Part shown: piece after piece, positions 84-28,621 of the stretch | Numbering within the stretch: position 1 is the stretch's first letter | Layout: the number at the start of each line of letters is the position of its first letter | Origin: Acholeplasma sp. | GTDB lineage: Bacteria; Bacillota_I; Bacilli_A; Acholeplasmatales; UBA5453 | Direction of reading: 5' to 3' | Assembly: GCA_036677365.1 (NCBI GenBank) | Contig: JAVBWN010000012.1 | Coordinates: 128,001 to 192,000 of the forward strand | DNA length: 64,000 nucleotides | Notes under the pieces: generated by a model | Seen by the model: the letters and a program-made list of their open reading frames with translations, nothing else | What the model was told of the DNA's origin: nothing | Databases searched by the model: none | Program-made: the position numbers and the translations under genes

Positions 84-1238
84 ATGAATTATTATTTTGA
101 ATTATTGTTACTCAAAAAACTGATTCAGAATAAAATGTCTACTAAGAATGAAGATAAGCAGTTCAAAGAGTATTATAATAAATTAAAAGCTAGGTTTGAC
201 TGGATTAAATACGACATTATTAATGATTCTGTTAATGAAATTCTAGAATATATTTCTGATACTTTCATAAATTCGAATGAGATTACTTTAACTGATAATG
301 ATTTAAATGACATTAAAAAAATTGTACTTGTACTTGGTCTAATAATTGACAACTTAAACTTATTAGATAGTGATAATATGGAGATTTATAGTAGACTACA
401 AGATTACGGGTATCAATTAGATTTATTACTTAAAAATATACCTAATGGTGATAATTATTTTGGAATATTCGATTATTCAAGTATACTACAAGATTATTTA
501 AATAACATTTATGTAAGCAATTTTAGTTTTGAATATTCAAATGCCTTAATTCAACTTTATAATCAAGTTGAAGAAGAAGACAGAGCCGAACAGGCAAAAC
601 AGGATATAAATGAGTTTAGAAGATCATTTACTGAAAGAGACTATGCTACCTTAGTAAGAACAAAAATCCTAGGTGTGTTCAACCTGACATTCAACGGAAG
701 AGTAGATAACAAAATAATGTTGAAATACTTAACAGCACTAGAGGGAACATCGGAATTTATTAAATTATATAGCACTTCTGAATTTAATTATAATTTACTC
801 ATGAATGGTGAATTTGATTTGAAAGATTTTGAGCTGACACCAATTATAACTGGGTTACTTAAAGGAACAGAGCAAATGTTGAGTTCTTTCGTAGAGTGGT
901 ACTATAATACATTAGAAAAAGACACAACAACAAGTATTCGTAGTTTCAATATTGAACTTTCAATAAGGGATAGTGAATGGAAGCAAAACATTACATTCGG
1001 TAGCTTAGTAAAACACATTGATGCACATATAATGGACAAAATTTTTAAGAATTGTTTTGAACCTAATAAACGATATCAAGTCATAAATGAGTTAAATGTT
1101 TGGAATACAAAAATACGAAACTCGAAATTCCACTCTTCAAACATTTATAATAAATCATTAATTGACCCGATAATTAATGATTGCTATCATGTTGCGAATA
1201 CAATAATACAATTGATGAGAATTGCAGATAGTAATTGA
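84..1238 (+). CDS. Hypothetical protein with C-terminal HEPN-like domain (putative RNase/defence protein)
   Basis: The ORF opens at 18, but GGAG at 75-78 supports ATG 84. The C-terminus has 'LLKGTEQML', 'ITFGSL' and 'IRNSKFH' (RxxxxH), as in HEPN domains. Very AT-rich. Confidence 0.55.
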   Translation: MNYYFELLLLKKLIQNKMSTKNEDKQFKEYYNKLKARFDWIKYDIINDSVNEILEYISDTFINSNEITLTDNDLNDIKKIVLVLGLIIDNLNLLDSDNMEIYSRLQDYGYQLDLLLKNIPNGDNYFGIFDYSSILQDYLNNIYVSNFSFEYSNALIQLYNQVEEEDRAEQAKQDINEFRRSFTERDYATLVRTKILGVFNLTFNGRVDNKIMLKYLTALEGTSEFIKLYSTSEFNYNLLMNGEFDLKDFELTPIITGLLKGTEQMLSSFVEWYYNTLEKDTTTSIRSFNIELSIRDSEWKQNITFGSLVKHIDAHIMDKIFKNCFEPNKRYQVINELNVWNTKIRNSKFHSSNIYNKSLIDPIINDCYHVANTIIQLMRIADSN

Positions 1239-21680: not shown

Positions 21681-22800
21681 GGTAGTTTGGGGATGCTTTC
21701 ATGTGTTTTACATCGTGGGGATGGGATTCTTTCAATCCAGCATGGGTAATTTTCATAAATCTGGCGTATAGTTTCATGTCTTCAATGGTTTTACACCCAC
21801 AATAACCCATCCCTGAACGTAAGCCACCCATCATTTGATAAATCACATCATGGATAGGACCTTTATAAGGGACACAAGCTTCAATGCCTTCAGGCACCAA
21901 CTTGTTGAGTTCTTTGACCCCACCTTGGAAGTAGCGGTCAGAAGACCCTCGTTGCATGGCGGTTAAAGACCCCATGCCAATGTAGGTTTTGTATTTTAAA
22001 CCATCTTTTTCAAATACCTCACCAGGGGATTCACTACAGCCAGCGAGTAAACTGCCCATCATCACACAGTCAGCACCTGCAGCGAGTGCTTTCGGGATGT
22101 CACCAGAAAGCTTAATCCCACCATCAGCGATGATCCCAACTTTATATTGTTTCGCAACCGAATACACATCGTTGATAGCGGATAGTTGTGGGACACCTAC
22201 TCCGGCAACCACACGGGTGGTACAAATCGACCCTGGACCAACCCCCACTTTTAAACAGGTTGCGCCAGCATAGATGAGGTCGATGGCTGCTTGTGCAGTG
22301 ACTATGTTCCCACCAATGATGTCTAAATCTGGGTATTTGTGACGTATCGATTTGATGGTTTCAATCACGCCTTTAGAATGACCGTGGGCTGAATCTACCG
22401 CGATGATATCGACCCCTGCAGATACCAACGCATCGATGCGTTCTAAGGTATTCTTAGATACACCCACCGCTGCCCCAACACGTAAACGACCCAATTCATC
22501 TTTGGTTGCGTCGGTTTCATTAAATGTGGCTGATTTAACCAGTTGTATTTCTTTGACTTGGTCTTCAATCGACATATTTTTATGTATGATGCCTAAGCCA
22601 CCCAGTTTCGCTAAAGCGATGGCCATCGTAGACTCTGTCACGGTGTCCATCGCTGCCGATAACACTGGGATGGCTAACGAGATCTTTTTAGTCAATTTCG
22701 TATCGAGTTTGACTTGAATCGGTACGACCTCAGAATATGATGGAACCAACAATAAATCATCAAATGTATAACCCTCAGCGGTTATTTTTTCTTTTAACAT
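21673..22800 (-). CDS. guaB: IMP dehydrogenase, short form lacking the CBS subdomain
   Basis: 'TFDDLLLVP', 'SAAMDTVTE', 'GPGSICTTR', 'ADGGI'. 375 aa, adjacent to guaA. Confidence 0.95.
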
Positions 22801-22971
22801 GAACCCTATCCCCCTTATTTATCAGCCATTTTATCATAGATAAGGGTAAAATAACCCAGTAAAATTGTAAAATAAGGGCTTAAGCGGTTTCACTGGGATT
22901 GATGATTTCATGATTCGGTGTTACAATCAAAAAAGAAGTTCATCGATACTAAATAAAGAAGGTAATGAAAA

Positions 22972-23751
22972 ATGAATAGAAAAAATGTGTTATGGTTTTT
23001 GGGTTTACTATTGGCTTGGCTTTCTTACATCCCACTGGGGTTTCTGATTGTAGAAACCAACGCCTTTGGACAATTGTATGAAAGTTTAAATTTATCACAA
23101 TCCAGTTTACGTTATTACATCACAGAGAATGCGTTTGATATGGCATTTATGGGCATCTTAACGATTGGTTTATTCATCCTATTGATCAATCGTTTTAAAT
23201 ACACCCAGGCAGTTCACTTTAAAATAACAACCATCACTAAAGTGGTTGTTTTGAGTGCTGTGATGATTTCAATCTTAGGTATGGTCATTCAAGTGTTATT
23301 CGCAGGGTCTAACCATCCCTTACATGCCTATATTGGCGAATACATCAAACAATTGTTGTGGGTTGGGATGGTTGAAGAATTGATCTTTAGAGGGTATATA
23401 TTCATTGAACTATTGAAATTGAAATCCTCTAAGTTTAAGTTAATATATATCGTTTTAATATCGGCTTTTATGTTTTCTATCATTCATTTACCAGCCTATT
23501 TCTTATACAACAGCCAATATGATTTATTATCCATTGTTTGGAATTTGATTTTCCCATTTTCCATTGGGGTCTTATATGCGTATCTTTTATATATGAATAA
23601 TGACATCATTTCGCTCATCTTCATTCACACAACCTCAAACATGATTTCATATTACACTGGTATCATGGGTACGGTGTGGCTAGTATTATTTTGGGTGGGA
23701 TTGGGTTATTACACCTATCATTCATATAAAACATATCTTCAAAACAAATAA
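22972..23751 (+). CDS. CPBP (CAAX-type) intramembrane glutamic endopeptidase
   Basis: 'EELIFRG', 'FSIIH', 'IHTTSN' within a multi-transmembrane protein. Confidence 0.85.
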   Translation: MNRKNVLWFLGLLLAWLSYIPLGFLIVETNAFGQLYESLNLSQSSLRYYITENAFDMAFMGILTIGLFILLINRFKYTQAVHFKITTITKVVVLSAVMISILGMVIQVLFAGSNHPLHAYIGEYIKQLLWVGMVEELIFRGYIFIELLKLKSSKFKLIYIVLISAFMFSIIHLPAYFLYNSQYDLLSIVWNLIFPFSIGVLYAYLLYMNNDIISLIFIHTTSNMISYYTGIMGTVWLVLFWVGLGYYTYHSYKTYLQNK

Positions 23752-23800
23752 AGAAGTGCTACTACAGAACAGCATAAGTCAACGATTAGGATATAAAAAT

Positions 23801-23862
23801 AAAAAAACAGAAGCAGTAATCTGGCCTTCTGTTTTTTGAAACTCGATATGAGTTTTCAGGAC
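23801..23862 (-). ncRNA. Putative small RNA (antitoxin-like), copy downstream of the Abi/HEPN gene
   Basis: Own promoter TTGCAT-17-TATAAT (23897-23869). Predicted RNA GUCCUGAAAACUCAUAUCGAGUUUCAAAAAACAGAAGGCCAGAUUACUGCUUCUGUUUUUUU has two hairpins, the second terminator-like. Second copy at 24893-24954. Confidence 0.65.
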
Positions 23863-23868
23863 ATGATT

Positions 23869-23897
23869 ATTATATCACGAGGAATTTTTGTATGCAA
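23869..23897 (-). promoter_or_regulatory. Sigma-70 promoter of the downstream sRNA copy
   Basis: TTGCAT-N17-TATAAT with extended TG, beginning just after the abi stop codon. Confidence 0.75.
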
Positions 23898-23903
23898 AAC
23901 AAA

Positions 23904-24845
23904 TTACTTGAAAGTTGACTGAACAGTTTTACAATCAGATGATAAACCTAAGCTTAGCAACAGTGAGTTAACATTCACTGATCCTTTCTTATTGTAATGA
24001 GCAATCTCTAGTATATTTCGCATTATCGACTTAAAAAAAGTTATATTATCTTGCAACAAGTACGAACAATGGGCAATAGTAGCGAATAATGAAACTTTAT
24101 TTTTATTGAGAATAAAGTGCGGATTGTAAATGTATGGATGAAATTTTGAATTGGAGATTTTTTTCCCCTTTAAAGTATCAAAATCAAGAATAAACTCACC
24201 ATGTGCACAGGCATTTCTCAAGTAGTTTAGCTTCTCTACCACATTATTGAATTCAGAGATTTTTAAATCAAAACTGTTTACAATGCGCTCTTTAATGTCT
24301 TTATTTAGTAACTTGAAAAAGGTCCTAATTTGTCCGAATGTTAAATAGTGAGCAATTACGAATGGTGGCACAGATTCAATGGTAGAAAAATGATATTTAG
24401 CATCTAAATTTTTTTTCTTTTTCGCATAGACTGTCCAGCATTCATCAATAAAAGCAGTTTTTACCGCATTACGATCTTCATCAGTGCCTGTATTAGGGTA
24501 GTCAAAGACATCTACAATAAATGAGTTTATTGTAAAATATGCATAACCATTATCTTTACAATAATATGAATACTCATCTGCAATTTTGTTTCTGATAATT
24601 CTCTCACATCTAAGCACTAACAATAAGACTTCTTTAGAAATTTTTTCATTGGTTTCCTCTAGCCACTTGTAATCTTGAACGGTAAAGAAGGCTAATTTAC
24701 CATCGTGAAAAAGATATTTCTCATAGTTATGGTTAATTAGGTAATAGCTGGTTGTTTTCAAATAAGCTTCAATTTCTTTCTTAGTTGAAATACAACCTTT
24801 TTCAATTTGTCGATTTACTTGTCCTTCTAAAGTTAATGGCTCCAT
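23904..24845 (-). CDS. Abi-like protein (Abi_2/AbiD/AbiF family, HEPN RNase)
   Basis: N-terminal 'LTLEGQV..QIEKG...LKTTSYY', 'PPFVIAHYLTFGQ', and HEPN motif 'LRNACAH'. GAGGTG RBS. AT-rich. Confidence 0.85.
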   Translation of the reverse strand: MEPLTLEGQVNRQIEKGCISTKKEIEAYLKTTSYYLINHNYEKYLFHDGKLAFFTVQDYKWLEETNEKISKEVLLLVLRCERIIRNKIADEYSYYCKDNGYAYFTINSFIVDVFDYPNTGTDEDRNAVKTAFIDECWTVYAKKKKNLDAKYHFSTIESVPPFVIAHYLTFGQIRTFFKLLNKDIKERIVNSFDLKISEFNNVVEKLNYLRNACAHGEFILDFDTLKGKKISNSKFHPYIYNPHFILNKNKVSLFATIAHCSYLLQDNITFFKSIMRNILEIAHYNKKGSVNVNSLLLSLGLSSDCKTVQSTFK

Positions 24846-24892
24846 ATGTTCACACCTCTAAAGTTTATATATTAGGTATATTATAACATAAT

Positions 24893-24954
24893 AAAAAAAA
24901 CAGAAGCAGTAATCTGGCCTTCTGTTTTTTGAAACCATCAATCGGTTTCAGGAC
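24893..24954 (-). ncRNA. Putative small RNA (antitoxin-like), copy upstream of the Abi/HEPN gene
   Basis: Own promoter TTGACT-17-TATTAT (24990-24962). Predicted RNA GUCCUGAAACCGAUUGAUGGUUUCAAAAAACAGAAGGCCAGAUUACUGCUUCUGUUUUUUUU shares a 42-nt identical core with 23801-23842. Confidence 0.7.
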
Positions 24955-24961
24955 ATAATCA

Positions 24962-24990
24962 ATAATACCATAACGTGATTTTGTAGTCAA
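24962..24990 (-). promoter_or_regulatory. Sigma-70 promoter of the upstream sRNA / abi operon
   Basis: TTGACT-N17-TATTAT with extended TG. Confidence 0.7.
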
Positions 24991-25129
24991 TCCATTTTAG
25001 AACAAACTAAAAAAAATGCAAAATTGTAGAATAAGTATAATCTATATTCTATGAAAAGCGTATAAGATAGAATAATACAATGATTATTCGTTTATTTTCT
25101 AGTATAATGATATAGTGAAGGTGAAAGAA

Positions 25130-26278
25130 ATGGATAAATTTGTAAGTTACGAAAAACGATTCTATAACCCTGAATTTACGGATACAAAGTTAGCGAAAAG
25201 AAAAAGAATGATGACAGATAAGCCTTATCTAAGTGCTACTATTAAGGATTTATCCCAAATAAAGATAGAAATCAGTCAAGAAACACAAGATTTGTTACTA
25301 GACTCGGTAGAAGGTTTAGCAAGACTTGATGGATATGTTCATCATTATCGAGATTTAATTTCTATGGTCATGCTAAGAGCTGAAGCTTTATCTAGTTCAC
25401 AAATAGAACATTATAGTGCCTCTAATCGAAGCGTGGCATTGGCACAAATTCACAAAAAGCAATCCACAGAAGCCATGATCATCAAATCCAACTTAGAGTC
25501 TTTGATTTTAGGTATTTCATCAAAAGAACCACTAGATACAAGTAAAATCATCCAATTGAATCAAACACTTTTAAAAAATCCAACCATGGACGTGCGTACC
25601 CGAATCAATTGGATTGGGACACCCAATTCTATACCCCATGAAGCAACCTATGTGCCACCACACCCTGAGCATCTTAATTTGTTTATGAGTCAGTTCATAG
25701 CTTTTTGTAATAGAAATGACATGCACCCATTGATTCAGTCAGCTATAGCTCATGCCTATTTTGAACTCATTCATCCATTCGAAGATGGAAATGGTCGTGT
25801 TGGCAGAATACTCATTCAGTGTTTATTAAGAGAAAAGCAGTTTTTAGAATTTCTTTCAATGCCATTTTCTGTAGGGATTGTTCATGATCAAGTCAGGTAC
25901 ATTCAAGCACTAAATGATTTTAAAGAAGGCAATTATGAGACCATCATTATTGTGCTATTAGAAAACACATTATACCTCGTACCCAAAGTGTATGATACAC
26001 TAGAAAAACTCATAAAACTCAAACAAAACTGGAAAGCCAAATTGAACATTCGACAAGATGCCCTAGCATGGAAAATACTGGATGATTTGATTGCACAACC
26101 CGTCATTGATGTAAAATATATTAGAGAAAAACACCAAGCCAATGATCAAGCTGTCAGAAATAACATACAAACGCTTGTGAATGTAGGTATCTTAAACATC
26201 ATAGGTAACGATAGTCGTGATGTTGCTTATGAATCCATTGAGGTATTGGATTTATTAGACCAATTCTCTAAAAAATAA
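25130..26278 (+). CDS. Fic family protein (probable AMP-transferase) with C-terminal HTH-like region
   Basis: Canonical HPFEDGNGRVGR. N-terminal 'SSQIEH' resembles the (S/T)xxxE(G/N) autoinhibitory helix. Confidence 0.9.
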   Translation: MDKFVSYEKRFYNPEFTDTKLAKRKRMMTDKPYLSATIKDLSQIKIEISQETQDLLLDSVEGLARLDGYVHHYRDLISMVMLRAEALSSSQIEHYSASNRSVALAQIHKKQSTEAMIIKSNLESLILGISSKEPLDTSKIIQLNQTLLKNPTMDVRTRINWIGTPNSIPHEATYVPPHPEHLNLFMSQFIAFCNRNDMHPLIQSAIAHAYFELIHPFEDGNGRVGRILIQCLLREKQFLEFLSMPFSVGIVHDQVRYIQALNDFKEGNYETIIIVLLENTLYLVPKVYDTLEKLIKLKQNWKAKLNIRQDALAWKILDDLIAQPVIDVKYIREKHQANDQAVRNNIQTLVNVGILNIIGNDSRDVAYESIEVLDLLDQFSKK

Positions 26279-26362
26279 ATCAGAACCTGTCATTTAGCGA
26301 AGTATTCTCACCAATAAATAAAAGCATTTTATCGTATATTATATGTAAGAAAGGATGACATC

Positions 26363-28621
26363 ATGAAAAGAGTATGGATTTTCTTTATCCTAATGATGAG
26401 CATAGTGAGCATGTATGGTCACTTTTTTAGTCATGAAGCTCATGATGTGAACACCTTCACCTTGTTATATGAGACCACGGATTTATCAGAACTCGATGGG
26501 TATATTCAAACCCATGATATGGTTATCCAAGATTATGATGGTAGAATCGCTGAAATTATGTATACAGGGACTGCTATAGATAAACTCATTGAAGATGGTT
26601 TCGTGTATGAGGGAATTTATTCAACTCAAAACCCACCATGGGTTAAACCCATCGTCAATGACCCTTATTTTCCAAATCAATATGCTTTAAAACTAACCAA
26701 TACCGACGATGCTTGGGGTATTACTACGGGTTCAAGTGCGGTTACTGTCGCCATCATCGATACAGGCATTGATGTCGATCACCCGGAATTTACAGGTAGA
26801 GTATCTGAATTATCGTATAACGCTGTTACCCAAATGGTTGGCTTAGAAGCGGTAGAAGATGATCAAGGCCACGGAACCATGGTGGCAGGTGTCATCGGTG
26901 CGAATTCAAACAACAGCACAGGGGTTGCTGGGGTAACCAATGCTGTACAGTTGATGGTTATCAAAGCCAATGAAGCGGGTGAGGATACGTTTAAAGATTC
27001 TGACATCATTCGAGGGATCTATTATGCCGTGGACAATGGTGCAGACATCATCAACTTATCCATAGGTAGCACTTATGCGAACCCACTCACCAAAAAAGCA
27101 TTAGATTACGCACTAGAAAAGAATGTCCTAGTTGTCGCTTCATCCGGTAATGATGGTGAAAACATCAAGATATACCCAGCCTCCTTTGACACAGTCATTT
27201 CAGTGGGGTCTGTCGATCAATATTCAAATCTATCCTCATTTTCCAATTATAACGATAAAGTCGATGTGGTCGCCCCAGGTAGCGGGATTGTAACGACCAA
27301 CCGTGCGAATACATATTCAACCGTTAACGGAACATCCTTTTCAAGTCCTTATGTGGCGGGGATCGCTGCTTTATACAAGAGTTTACACCCAGAAGCAACC
27401 GTAGCTCATTTAACCGATGTCATCACATCCACGGCCAAAGATTTGGGTACCACCGGGTATGATATCCAATATGGTCATGGCTTAATTGATGCTTTAGCGA
27501 TGGTCTCACTTTCTTATATCCAAGTGACTGTGGATTACCCACTCGATATTCCTAGCAGTTATTATTACGTGACCTCAGGTGGTACCATCAGTATTGAAAG
27601 ACCACCGGTCATCGATTACTATGAGTTTGTTGGTTGGTACTTAGATGAAGCTTATCAAATCCCATATGAATCTACCTATGCTTTTACAACGAATACCACG
27701 ATCTATGCGTATTATCGTAAAACCCATGGGGTCATCACTTGGGTGATTGATGAACAAATCGTATCCACAGAAACCCTTTCGTTAGGGTCACTACCAACAC
27801 CACCCGATACCAATTTACCAGGTGTCACATTCTATGGCTGGTATTTGGATGAAGCCTATACCCAGCCCGTCACAGACTTCATGGTAACGGATGATCAAAC
27901 CTATTATGGGTATTATCAAGTTCAATATTTTGAACTACAATACCTCGCAGAAGACCATACCACCCTATTGTCCATCATTCAGTATTCTAGTATTGAACCC
28001 ATCGAATGGATGGCGGGTCCTGAAAAACCTTCGGATTTATATTATAATTACACATTCATCGGTTGGACAGAAGCGGTTCTATATGAATCCGAAATTGTGT
28101 ATGTCTATCCTATCTATAAAAAAGTCTTGAAGCCCGATTTGTCAGGGTTAAACCCTGGGGTAGATACCATCATTGAAGGACAAACTTATATCGATACAGG
28201 GATCTTTGTTTTAGTTGAGGGTTTAACCGTTCAAACGGTGGGTTCGATTGATTCGACTGAAGTTGGGGTTCAAACCTTGACTTATGAGATATACGACGGT
28301 GAAACCCTGGTGTATACCTTAATCCGAAAGATTCGAGTATTGACCGATAATCGATTGGTGGTTACCCTCAATAAAGCGATCACGACTTTATATGTCGGTG
28401 ATGATTATGTGGACCGAGGGGTCACCTATAATAAAGGTATCTTGGTCAAAACAGGTGAAGTCGACATCTCTAAAACAGGCATATATAAAATCACCTACAC
28501 CGTCACGTATCGTGACCAAGTGGTGGTAAAATCAAGGTATGTCATCGTGCTCGCTAGAGAAATCGAAACCCCTGTAGGCTATATACCGAGTAGAAAAGAG
28601 GATGACATCAATGAAAGCTAA
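26363..28621 (+). CDS. Secreted S8 subtilisin-like serine protease with InlB-B and DUF5011 repeats
   Basis: Catalytic motifs IIDTG, HGTMVAG, GTSFSSP. 'F.GWYLD' repeats. Signal peptide. Confidence 0.92.
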   Translation: MKRVWIFFILMMSIVSMYGHFFSHEAHDVNTFTLLYETTDLSELDGYIQTHDMVIQDYDGRIAEIMYTGTAIDKLIEDGFVYEGIYSTQNPPWVKPIVNDPYFPNQYALKLTNTDDAWGITTGSSAVTVAIIDTGIDVDHPEFTGRVSELSYNAVTQMVGLEAVEDDQGHGTMVAGVIGANSNNSTGVAGVTNAVQLMVIKANEAGEDTFKDSDIIRGIYYAVDNGADIINLSIGSTYANPLTKKALDYALEKNVLVVASSGNDGENIKIYPASFDTVISVGSVDQYSNLSSFSNYNDKVDVVAPGSGIVTTNRANTYSTVNGTSFSSPYVAGIAALYKSLHPEATVAHLTDVITSTAKDLGTTGYDIQYGHGLIDALAMVSLSYIQVTVDYPLDIPSSYYYVTSGGTISIERPPVIDYYEFVGWYLDEAYQIPYESTYAFTTNTTIYAYYRKTHGVITWVIDEQIVSTETLSLGSLPTPPDTNLPGVTFYGWYLDEAYTQPVTDFMVTDDQTYYGYYQVQYFELQYLAEDHTTLLSIIQYSSIEPIEWMAGPEKPSDLYYNYTFIGWTEAVLYESEIVYVYPIYKKVLKPDLSGLNPGVDTIIEGQTYIDTGIFVLVEGLTVQTVGSIDSTEVGVQTLTYEIYDGETLVYTLIRKIRVLTDNRLVVTLNKAITTLYVGDDYVDRGVTYNKGILVKTGEVDISKTGIYKITYTVTYRDQVVVKSRYVIVLAREIETPVGYIPSRKEDDINES

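Follow-up and report, generated by a model that had tools for sequence, protein, structure and literature searches.

Why should a gene for a putative RNase toxin be flanked on both sides by nearly the same short RNA? The question is raised by a 64,000-nt stretch of an Acholeplasma sp. genome (assembly GCA_036677365.1, contig JAVBWN010000012.1, positions 128,001 to 192,000), referred to below as the window, with positions counted from its first letter. On the minus strand of the window two 62-nt RNA units, at 24893-24954 upstream and 23801-23862 downstream, flank the abi gene (23904..24845), which encodes a 313-residue HEPN protein of the Abi_2 / AbiD-F family, a putative RNase toxin. The answer proposed here is that the units are probably genes for an RNA antitoxin of this AbiD/F toxin, in an arrangement resembling type III toxin-antitoxin systems. 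They constitute a new RNA family, absent from Rfam, and their gene layout is new as well, while the kind of system, an AbiD/F toxin paired with an RNA, is already known. The proposal is built on what is directly visible, namely the anatomy of the sequence, its conservation with the gene, covarying base pairs and the fold relationship of the protein to PbAbiF.

Anatomy of the locus

The first 9 and the last 42 nucleotides of the two units are identical, and the mismatches are confined to a central stretch of 10 versus 11 nt, the upper part of hairpin 1; in addition, the upstream tail is longer by one U. In a repeat search the pair appears as a 42-nt exact repeat in dispersed copies, 1093 nt apart, and no tandem repeats were found at the locus. 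Both copies share one fold, composed of a 5' GUCC, hairpin 1, an A-rich linker, hairpin 2 and a U run. In the upstream copy, hairpin 1 (24930-24950) follows the 5' GUCCUG and reads UGAAACC-GAUUGAU-GGUUUCA, a 7-bp stem closed by the loop GAUUGAU. Beyond it lie hairpin 2, the core of an intrinsic terminator (24901-24924), which consists of a lower stem, a GC bulge, a CAG/CUG helix and the loop AUUA, and the U run (24893-24900). Hairpin 1 of the downstream copy (23837-23858), also after GUCCUG, reads UGAAAACUC-AUAUC-GAGUUUCA, with 8 pairs, a bulged A and the loop AUAUC, and is followed by the terminator core of hairpin 2 at 23808-23831 and by the U run at 23801-23807. Compared with shuffled sequences, the folding z-scores are -4.04 for the upstream copy (minimum free energy -20.3 kcal/mol) and -4.06 for the downstream copy (-18.0 kcal/mol).

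The initial annotation had stated that the copies differ almost only in hairpin 1, with the pairing preserved. The hairpin sequences that it quoted are exact and the statement holds. In this pair the compensating change comes down to a single additional U-A pair, with a bulged A and another loop sequence, which is modest evidence alone; the strong structural support comes from the homologues described below, not from the two copies of the window. The element occurs only twice in its own 1.97-Mb genome, whether sought as a pattern with up to 3 mismatches or with a covariance model, and an interpretation as a genome-wide repeat was rejected on this count. With the covariance model of the element, R1, the upstream copy scores 84 bits and the downstream copy 86.1 bits.

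Each unit is preceded by a sigma-70-type promoter of its own, and the two are the best minus-strand promoter matches in 23600-25200. The upstream promoter (24962..24990) combines TTGACT and TATTAT, with a 17-nt spacing and a TG before the -10 element; the downstream promoter (23869..23898) combines TTGCAT or TTTGCA with TATAAT, at a spacing of 17-18 nt. Both have 10/12 matches, and in both copies GUCCUG begins 7 nt past the -10 element. The downstream promoter begins about 6 nt beyond the abi stop codon. The promoter stretches, taken as the 41-42 nt directly upstream of the units, are identical between copies at 25/42 positions, versus 51/51 for the RNA body without the top of hairpin 1 (Fisher p = 1.5e-7). 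Such uneven divergence is unlike the outcome of a recent plain duplication.

Hairpin 2, with the 7-8 U that follow it, has the features of a Rho-independent terminator and folds stably in all six sequences tested (6/6); a simple terminator scan overlooked it because of the bulge. The abi gene appears to have its own promoter after the upstream terminator, judging from an extended -10 element (TGTTATAAT, minus strand, 24880..24888) that sits 4 nt past the U run of the upstream RNA and ahead of the ribosome-binding site AGAGGTG (24853-24859). The four other lineages discussed below (L018, L019, L020 and L021) have a TGn-extended -10 element at the corresponding position ahead of abi. Between the abi stop codon and the downstream RNA element no other terminator-like site was found, and the abi mRNA should therefore run into the downstream RNA and end at hairpin 2. 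Read on the plus strand, the downstream element can also terminate the convergent gene for a CAAX protease (22972-23751).

The protein matches PF07751 over residues 28-218 with 67 bits (cut-off 25.6), and its best PADLOC model is AbiD (7.3e-23); it is about 24% identical to a homologue on a lactococcal plasmid. The motif R210-N-A-C-A-H215 fits the HEPN pattern Rx4-6H, and R210, N211, C213, A214 and H215 are invariant in 14 sequences, the window protein and its 13 closest homologues (54-78% identity). The AlphaFold2 model (pLDDT 90.1) has a single fold match in the Protein Data Bank (PDB) with E <= 0.001, 8vz6_A, described as 'PbAbiF dimer bound to ncRNA' (Foldseek E 7.5e-6, TM 0.67/0.70). A profile search returns the same entry (E 1.6e-4) around the HEPN motif, which aligns to the corresponding stretch of 8vz6_A.

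The clade to which this protein belongs is rare, with 16 clusters in a large protein database. No close relative was found among 399 scored genomes of the class, the gene is carried by none of the 9 congeners searched, and protein-pattern scans of reference genome and viral contig collections returned no close relative. DNA-pattern scans of the reference collections gave 5 + 2 matches; these lie in coding regions of high GC content, have neither leader nor U run, and were rejected as chance hits.

Conservation of the RNA with the gene

A metagenome scan yielded six homologous loci, of which L016 and L017 come from the same or a near-identical organism and L018-L021 represent four other lineages, with 64%, 66%, 58% and 69% protein identity to the window abi, respectively (the gene is cut in L021). 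A downstream RNA copy lies 23-41 nt past the stop codon in 4/4 lineages in which that side is visible (the window with L016 and L017, L018, L019 and L020; the downstream side of L021 is off the contig). An upstream copy is present in three of the five lineages (the window, L019 and L021), that of L019 having only hairpin 2 on the contig. The separate promoter of each copy and the presence of a downstream copy in every lineage with that side visible had both been overlooked in the initial annotation. Model R1 gives 8 matches of 72.8-86.1 bits, in the window and in L017-L021, which comprise six distinct sequences; L017 has the same upstream copy as the window and a downstream copy with a single nucleotide changed. 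The next-best match, at 22 bits, is the opposite strand of the same terminators. All 7 full copies have -35 and -10 elements at a constant distance, and GUCCUG begins 6-7 nt past the latter. Identity between lineages is 75-89% for the RNA, 66-69% for the coding DNA and about 50% for the sequence past the terminator.

The genes next to the unit differ in every lineage that carries abi and the RNA. They are CAAX protease and Fic genes in the window; transposase-like, VWA and AbiEii genes in L018; spermidine synthase, AdoMet decarboxylase and Wzy genes in L020; and a methyltransferase-like gene in L021. The congener G004 lacks abi, and its CAAX gene precedes an unrelated terminator and an ArsR-like gene. 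The changing neighbourhoods indicate that the RNA travels with abi and nothing else: a small RNA gene is kept beside the toxin gene in five lineages, all with different neighbourhoods, as would be expected of a type III-like system.

The pairing of the RNA is conserved in the homologues. When 7 distinct sequences are aligned by fitting to the model, 98.6% of the 138 cells hold standard pairs, compared with 40-52% in slid-register controls, and two-sided changes occur in 4/20 pairs, three of them in hairpin 2; none of 500 shuffles reaches any of the observed measures. Pair 37:55 of hairpin 2 occurs as A-U, C-G and U-A, and the partial upstream copy of L019 has U-A where its downstream sister has C-G. 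The covariation evidence is real but thin.

Hairpin 1 has an AAAC/GUUU base in all copies, topped by a free loop of 4-7 nt, seen as AUAUC, ACAUC, AAUA, AAAUCA, UUAU, GAUUGAU and AACA. The initial annotation had expected homologues to conserve the pairing of hairpin 1 and the loop of hairpin 2, the latter as an invariant part of the RNA. The pairing is indeed conserved. The loop is invariant within this genome but not across lineages, where it reads AUUA, UUUAA, AUAU or UAUUUUA and is shared by both copies of one locus. The parts that stay invariant across lineages are GGCCAG...CUGC, in which a bulge of two bases, GC, sits beneath the 3-bp CAG/CUG helix, and the leader G(U/A)CCUG.

An inversion of the top of hairpin 1 was considered as the origin of the difference between the window copies; the reverse complement of the upstream loop fits the downstream loop by 5 versus 4 matches (by eye), which is unconvincing, and the lineage comparison makes loop drift with one added pair the simpler account. 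The stems suggest an old paralogy, with an upstream type AAACC/GGUUUC (window and L021) and a downstream type AAACUC/GAGUUUC (window, L018 and L019, and L020 with GGG). The upstream type is represented by two examples, and the promoter identities, 24/43 to 26/41, do not decide the matter.

A candidate RNA antitoxin and its alternatives

The closest structural parallel is PbAbiF-AbiFr from Prevotellaceae (PDB 8VZ6), which shares the fold of the window protein over its whole length and likewise has a conserved small RNA beside the gene, although the proteins are only 16% identical and the window RNA belongs to a different family. PbAbiF is described as a dimer with one ncRNA per monomer, the RNA blocking the active site (PMC12737573, PMC13064643), and this RNA is reported as an antitoxin (PMC12737573; bioRxiv 10.1101/2025.04.15.648962). 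In the window, two separate RNA genes bracket the toxin and the core copy is 3' of it, whereas the PbAbiF ncRNA is placed 'upstream' in a review (PMC13064643). The second parallel is RCd22 / AbiF_Cd of the C. difficile phage phi027, in which an Abi_2 toxin gene directly follows a short promoter-driven RNA with a terminator, as it does the upstream copy here; RCd22 is reported to bind AbiF_Cd and to neutralise it in cis and in trans (bioRxiv 10.1101/2025.04.15.648962). AbiFr and RCd22 are thus described as RNA antitoxins of the Abi_2 family (bioRxiv 10.1101/2025.04.15.648962; PMC13064643; PMC12737573). RCd22 is a single RNA with two RF03085 motifs, upstream only and co-transcribed with abiF; the window differs from it by an abi promoter after the terminator, an extra downstream RNA copy and the lack of a CAAAUC internal loop.

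For the lactococcal genes AbiD1 and AbiF, a conserved upstream promoter-terminator element is reported to be required (PMC11381338), and the element of AbiD/AbiD1/AbiF is described as better conserved than the genes (PMC11381338, PMC13064643), as in the window. The accessible parts of the literature found on AbiD/AbiF mention no downstream RNA, and for the lactococcal genes they describe only upstream elements. ToxIN, CptIN and TenpIN resemble the present locus in that an RNase toxin, linked to abortive infection, is restrained by an adjacent small structured RNA; the window differs from them in having no tandem repeats, an unrelated toxin fold and separate RNA genes on both sides.

The RNA itself has only sub-threshold chance matches in Rfam 15 (STnc40, sraA and lactis-plasmid, 17-23 bits). 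The consensus of RF03085, as seen in phage phiC2, comprises a 6-bp stem, a 1-nt 5' bulge, a 3-bp AGC/GCU helix, a loop and a 6-nt 3' internal loop CAAAUC. Hairpin 2 has the same succession of stem, 5' bulge and 3-bp stem, built from a 6-7-bp stem, a 2-nt 5' GC bulge and a 3-bp CAG/CUG helix, with no shared sequence; it is abiF-like in layout but is not a member of the family.

In the scheme that we favour, the two copies would be genes for one small RNA of about 55-62 nt, the cognate partner of the HEPN protein encoded between them, and this RNA would bind the protein and keep the RNase silent in the manner of type III toxin-antitoxin systems. The downstream copy, present wherever that side is visible, would be the core of the system. 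Every abi mRNA would also carry the downstream RNA in its 3' untranslated region (UTR), toxin message and antitoxin being made together, and the separate downstream promoter would supply extra antitoxin. The upstream copy, optional by lineage, would add dosage; its terminator would shield abi from read-through and, lying 4 nt before the abi promoter, might occlude it. The likely candidates for contact with the protein are, in hairpin 2, the bulge and helix that never vary and, at the 5' side, the leader with the stem of hairpin 1; the loops of both hairpins look neutral. We infer from the sequence that the units are transcribed and the RNA processed, that it binds and neutralises the protein, and that it is released on phage infection.

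Several observations weigh against this scheme. The only two metatranscriptome runs that contained any of this DNA, in small shares, gave a 455-nt contig inside the coding sequence and a 151-nt contig over 23700-23844, neither of which shows transcription or RNA ends. The covariation comes from 7 distinct sequences of five lineages, some of them interrelated, the alignment used for the pair counts was itself fitted to the model, and in hairpin 1 only 1/8 pairs has two-sided changes. The RNA found after a distant Abi_2 paralogue (described below) shares hairpin 1 of the window RNA and not hairpin 2. RF03085 was sought in 22500-26500 and in 23790-23875 without a match at E <= 10; membership was set at a covariance-model score of at least 37 bits, and the phiC2 positive control reached 37.6 bits. 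The window RNA also has no counterpart of the 3' internal loop of that family. The same search of 151 genomes of the class gave no match even in the controls and therefore carries no information either way. Upstream of abi, no copy was found over 1318 nt in L018 and 2500 nt in L020, and the bracketing pair is therefore not essential. Finally, hairpin 2, flanked by A and U stretches, is itself able to terminate transcription in both directions, and this accounts for part of its conservation.

This last point leads to an unlikely alternative, that the cassettes are cis-acting punctuation only, a terminator plus promoter that insulates a toxic gene, with no partnership between RNA and protein. 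Hairpin 2 and its U run form an intrinsic terminator on both strands, the upstream 'strong promoter and terminator' of AbiD1 is described as required (PMC11381338), and termination alone is reported to add to control in C. difficile (bioRxiv 10.1101/2025.04.15.648962). A terminator, however, needs no conserved leader, hairpin 1, GC bulge, CAG/CUG helix or promoter at a fixed distance, all of which are kept at 58-69% protein identity, and the RNA is better conserved than the coding DNA. Moreover, a promoter placed right past a stop codon and firing into a terminator makes sense only if a short RNA is the product. The RNA might instead be a required cofactor, an activating scaffold, or a sensor released or altered by phage, rather than an inhibitor. 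The anatomy of the locus is equally compatible with such a role, and the antiphage activity of lactococcal AbiF is reported to need the upstream sequence (PMC11381338, PMC13064643); we nevertheless regard it as rather improbable, given that the RNA is reported to neutralise toxicity in two studied relatives and that the RNA of PbAbiF blocks the active site (bioRxiv 10.1101/2025.04.15.648962; PMC13064643; PMC12737573).

The direct repeats could also be att-like traces of a mobile cassette, produced when abi inserted or recombined into a terminator. They do flank a gene found in none of the 9 congeners searched, an accessory gene, Fic, adjoins the locus, and a degenerate orphan copy without abi in the genome G169 is a weak hint in the same direction, from another genus and another context. 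This explanation is nonetheless very improbable: L018 and L020 carry the gene with a single copy, no recombinase lies beside abi, the divergence is as uneven as described above while both copies keep their promoters, and the unrelated terminator after the CAAX gene of G004 means that the repeat is not a duplicated target. The contention of the initial annotation that selection acts on the RNA, and that the copies are not a simple insertion-site duplication, is thus upheld by the individual promoters, the conservation in other lineages and neighbourhoods, the covarying pairs and the single-copy lineages. Its further suggestion, that the constant-variable-constant arrangement might diversify specificity, found no support in the comparison. 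Developed into a guide-like RNA, in which the variable top of hairpin 1 sets the target as in a proto-crRNA, the idea can point to that layout and to the descent link between AbiF and Cas13 made in the literature (PMC12737573). The variable part, however, is only 4-7 nt long, which is too little for an informative search for targets, is closed in a loop and is free to vary between lineages, and the locus has no repeat-spacer arrays; L017 and the window, 99% identical as loci, already have different loops, as expected of neutral drift. A guide function is accordingly hardly credible, and an RNA antitoxin remains the reading that we prefer.

Other Abi_2 clades and neighbouring features

The layout may extend beyond this clade. 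It is conceivable, and put forward here only tentatively, that bracketing by cognate small RNA genes is a general, undescribed layout of AbiD/F systems, with a clade-specific RNA 3' of the toxin, in the 3' UTR of its mRNA, that is often duplicated 5'. A 3' RNA is seen in at least three unrelated RNA families: that of the window; a hairpin with a 7-bp stem, AAA bulge and CUU-AAG helix that flanks the gene in 3 genomes; and an A-rich hairpin plus terminator after the 19%-identical paralogue and its relatives. These wider-pattern elements come from visual inspection of 46 distant Abi_2 loci, with no set of controls. Model R1 found no member at distant Abi_2 loci (L013-L015, L031-L034 and L067-L076), the best score being 15.5 bits.

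AbiD/F proteins, which have been proposed as the ancestors of Cas13, rank among the commonest single-gene phage defences, and it was not until 2025 that their RNA partner came to light. Surveys limited to upstream sequences or to RF03085 would overlook an RNA gene that is placed behind the toxin gene and perhaps repeated in front of it. If the 3'-linked arrangement is general, the cloning and annotation of Abi_2 genes would change, as constructs that omit the downstream 100 nt would be toxic or inactive. The present locus offers a compact 1.2-kb test case for what the toxin reads, with a natural pair of variants that have the same body and a different hairpin-1 top; if two non-identical copies load the two halves of a HEPN dimer, an asymmetric complex would be possible.

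The paralogue is the second Abi_2 gene of the same genome (L067 659-1555, on G000:C16, minus strand), 19% identical to that of the window. Right after its stop codon, at L067 577-658, are a TATAAT -10 element, a leader GAAGAUC, a hairpin AAAACUC-AUAG-GAGUUU and a plain 12-bp terminator. The stem of this hairpin is the same as that of hairpin 1 in the window RNA, and model R1 gives only 15 bits. L069, a relative at 47% identity, has the same GAAGAUC leader and a covarying AAAACCC/GGGUUU stem, and L072 and L076 keep the layout.

Another Abi_2 clade, with proteins of about 290 residues (L045, L046 and L049), is bracketed likewise by a different hairpin, which consists of a 7-bp stem, a 3-nt AAA 5' bulge, a 3-bp CUU/AAG helix and a 1-nt 3' bulge, with 4/10 pairs covarying. 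One copy lies in the 5' UTR and one, with its own -10 element, after the stop codon (L045 1343-1398 and 2317-2372; L046 362-417 and 1318-1373; L049 2144-2199 and 1190-1245, minus strand); L044 has the downstream copy only (1125-1180, minus strand). This hairpin has no Rfam match, and its layout of a 6-7-bp stem, 5' bulge, 3-bp stem and loop is that of hairpin 2, to which it is unrelated. In L045 the repeat continues into a mock gene start, and about 860 nt ahead of the bracketed unit this locus, from the genome G060, has a tmRNA gene (180-548, 105.8 bits). tmRNA genes are a common insertion site for islands.

Abi genes on Lactococcus and Fusobacterium plasmids are accompanied by a near-consensus promoter, a hairpin GCUCUUAAGAGC(A/G)UU and a second hairpin after the gene (L031 1690-1800, L032 1790-1860 and L034 1850-1930); L031 also has a related hairpin upstream. 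A family of organisms with genomes of about 1 Mb (f11) has an Abi_2 gene in 49/49 genomes. At the f11 loci seen (L050, L052-L056, L059 and L061-L066) the Abi_2 gene runs straight into the next open reading frame, which leaves no space for a downstream RNA. Universal retention of an Abi_2 gene within an operon is odd for a defence gene.

The orphan copy in G169, a genome of the same order, is a degenerate look-alike of the window RNA (L036 1501-1562, 38.7 bits), in which GGCCAG has decayed to AGUUAG and a -10-like element stands at the right distance. No abi gene or remnant was found within 1.5 kb of it, and it may be a relic.

In the window, the abi unit is adjoined on the plus strand by a gene for a Fic/DOC protein (25115-26278), and nearby is a gene for a large S8 subtilase with Listeria-Bacteroides repeats (26363-28621). 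As G004 has the ArsR-like gene after its CAAX gene instead, the stretch of abi, Fic and subtilase genes looks like an accessory islet.

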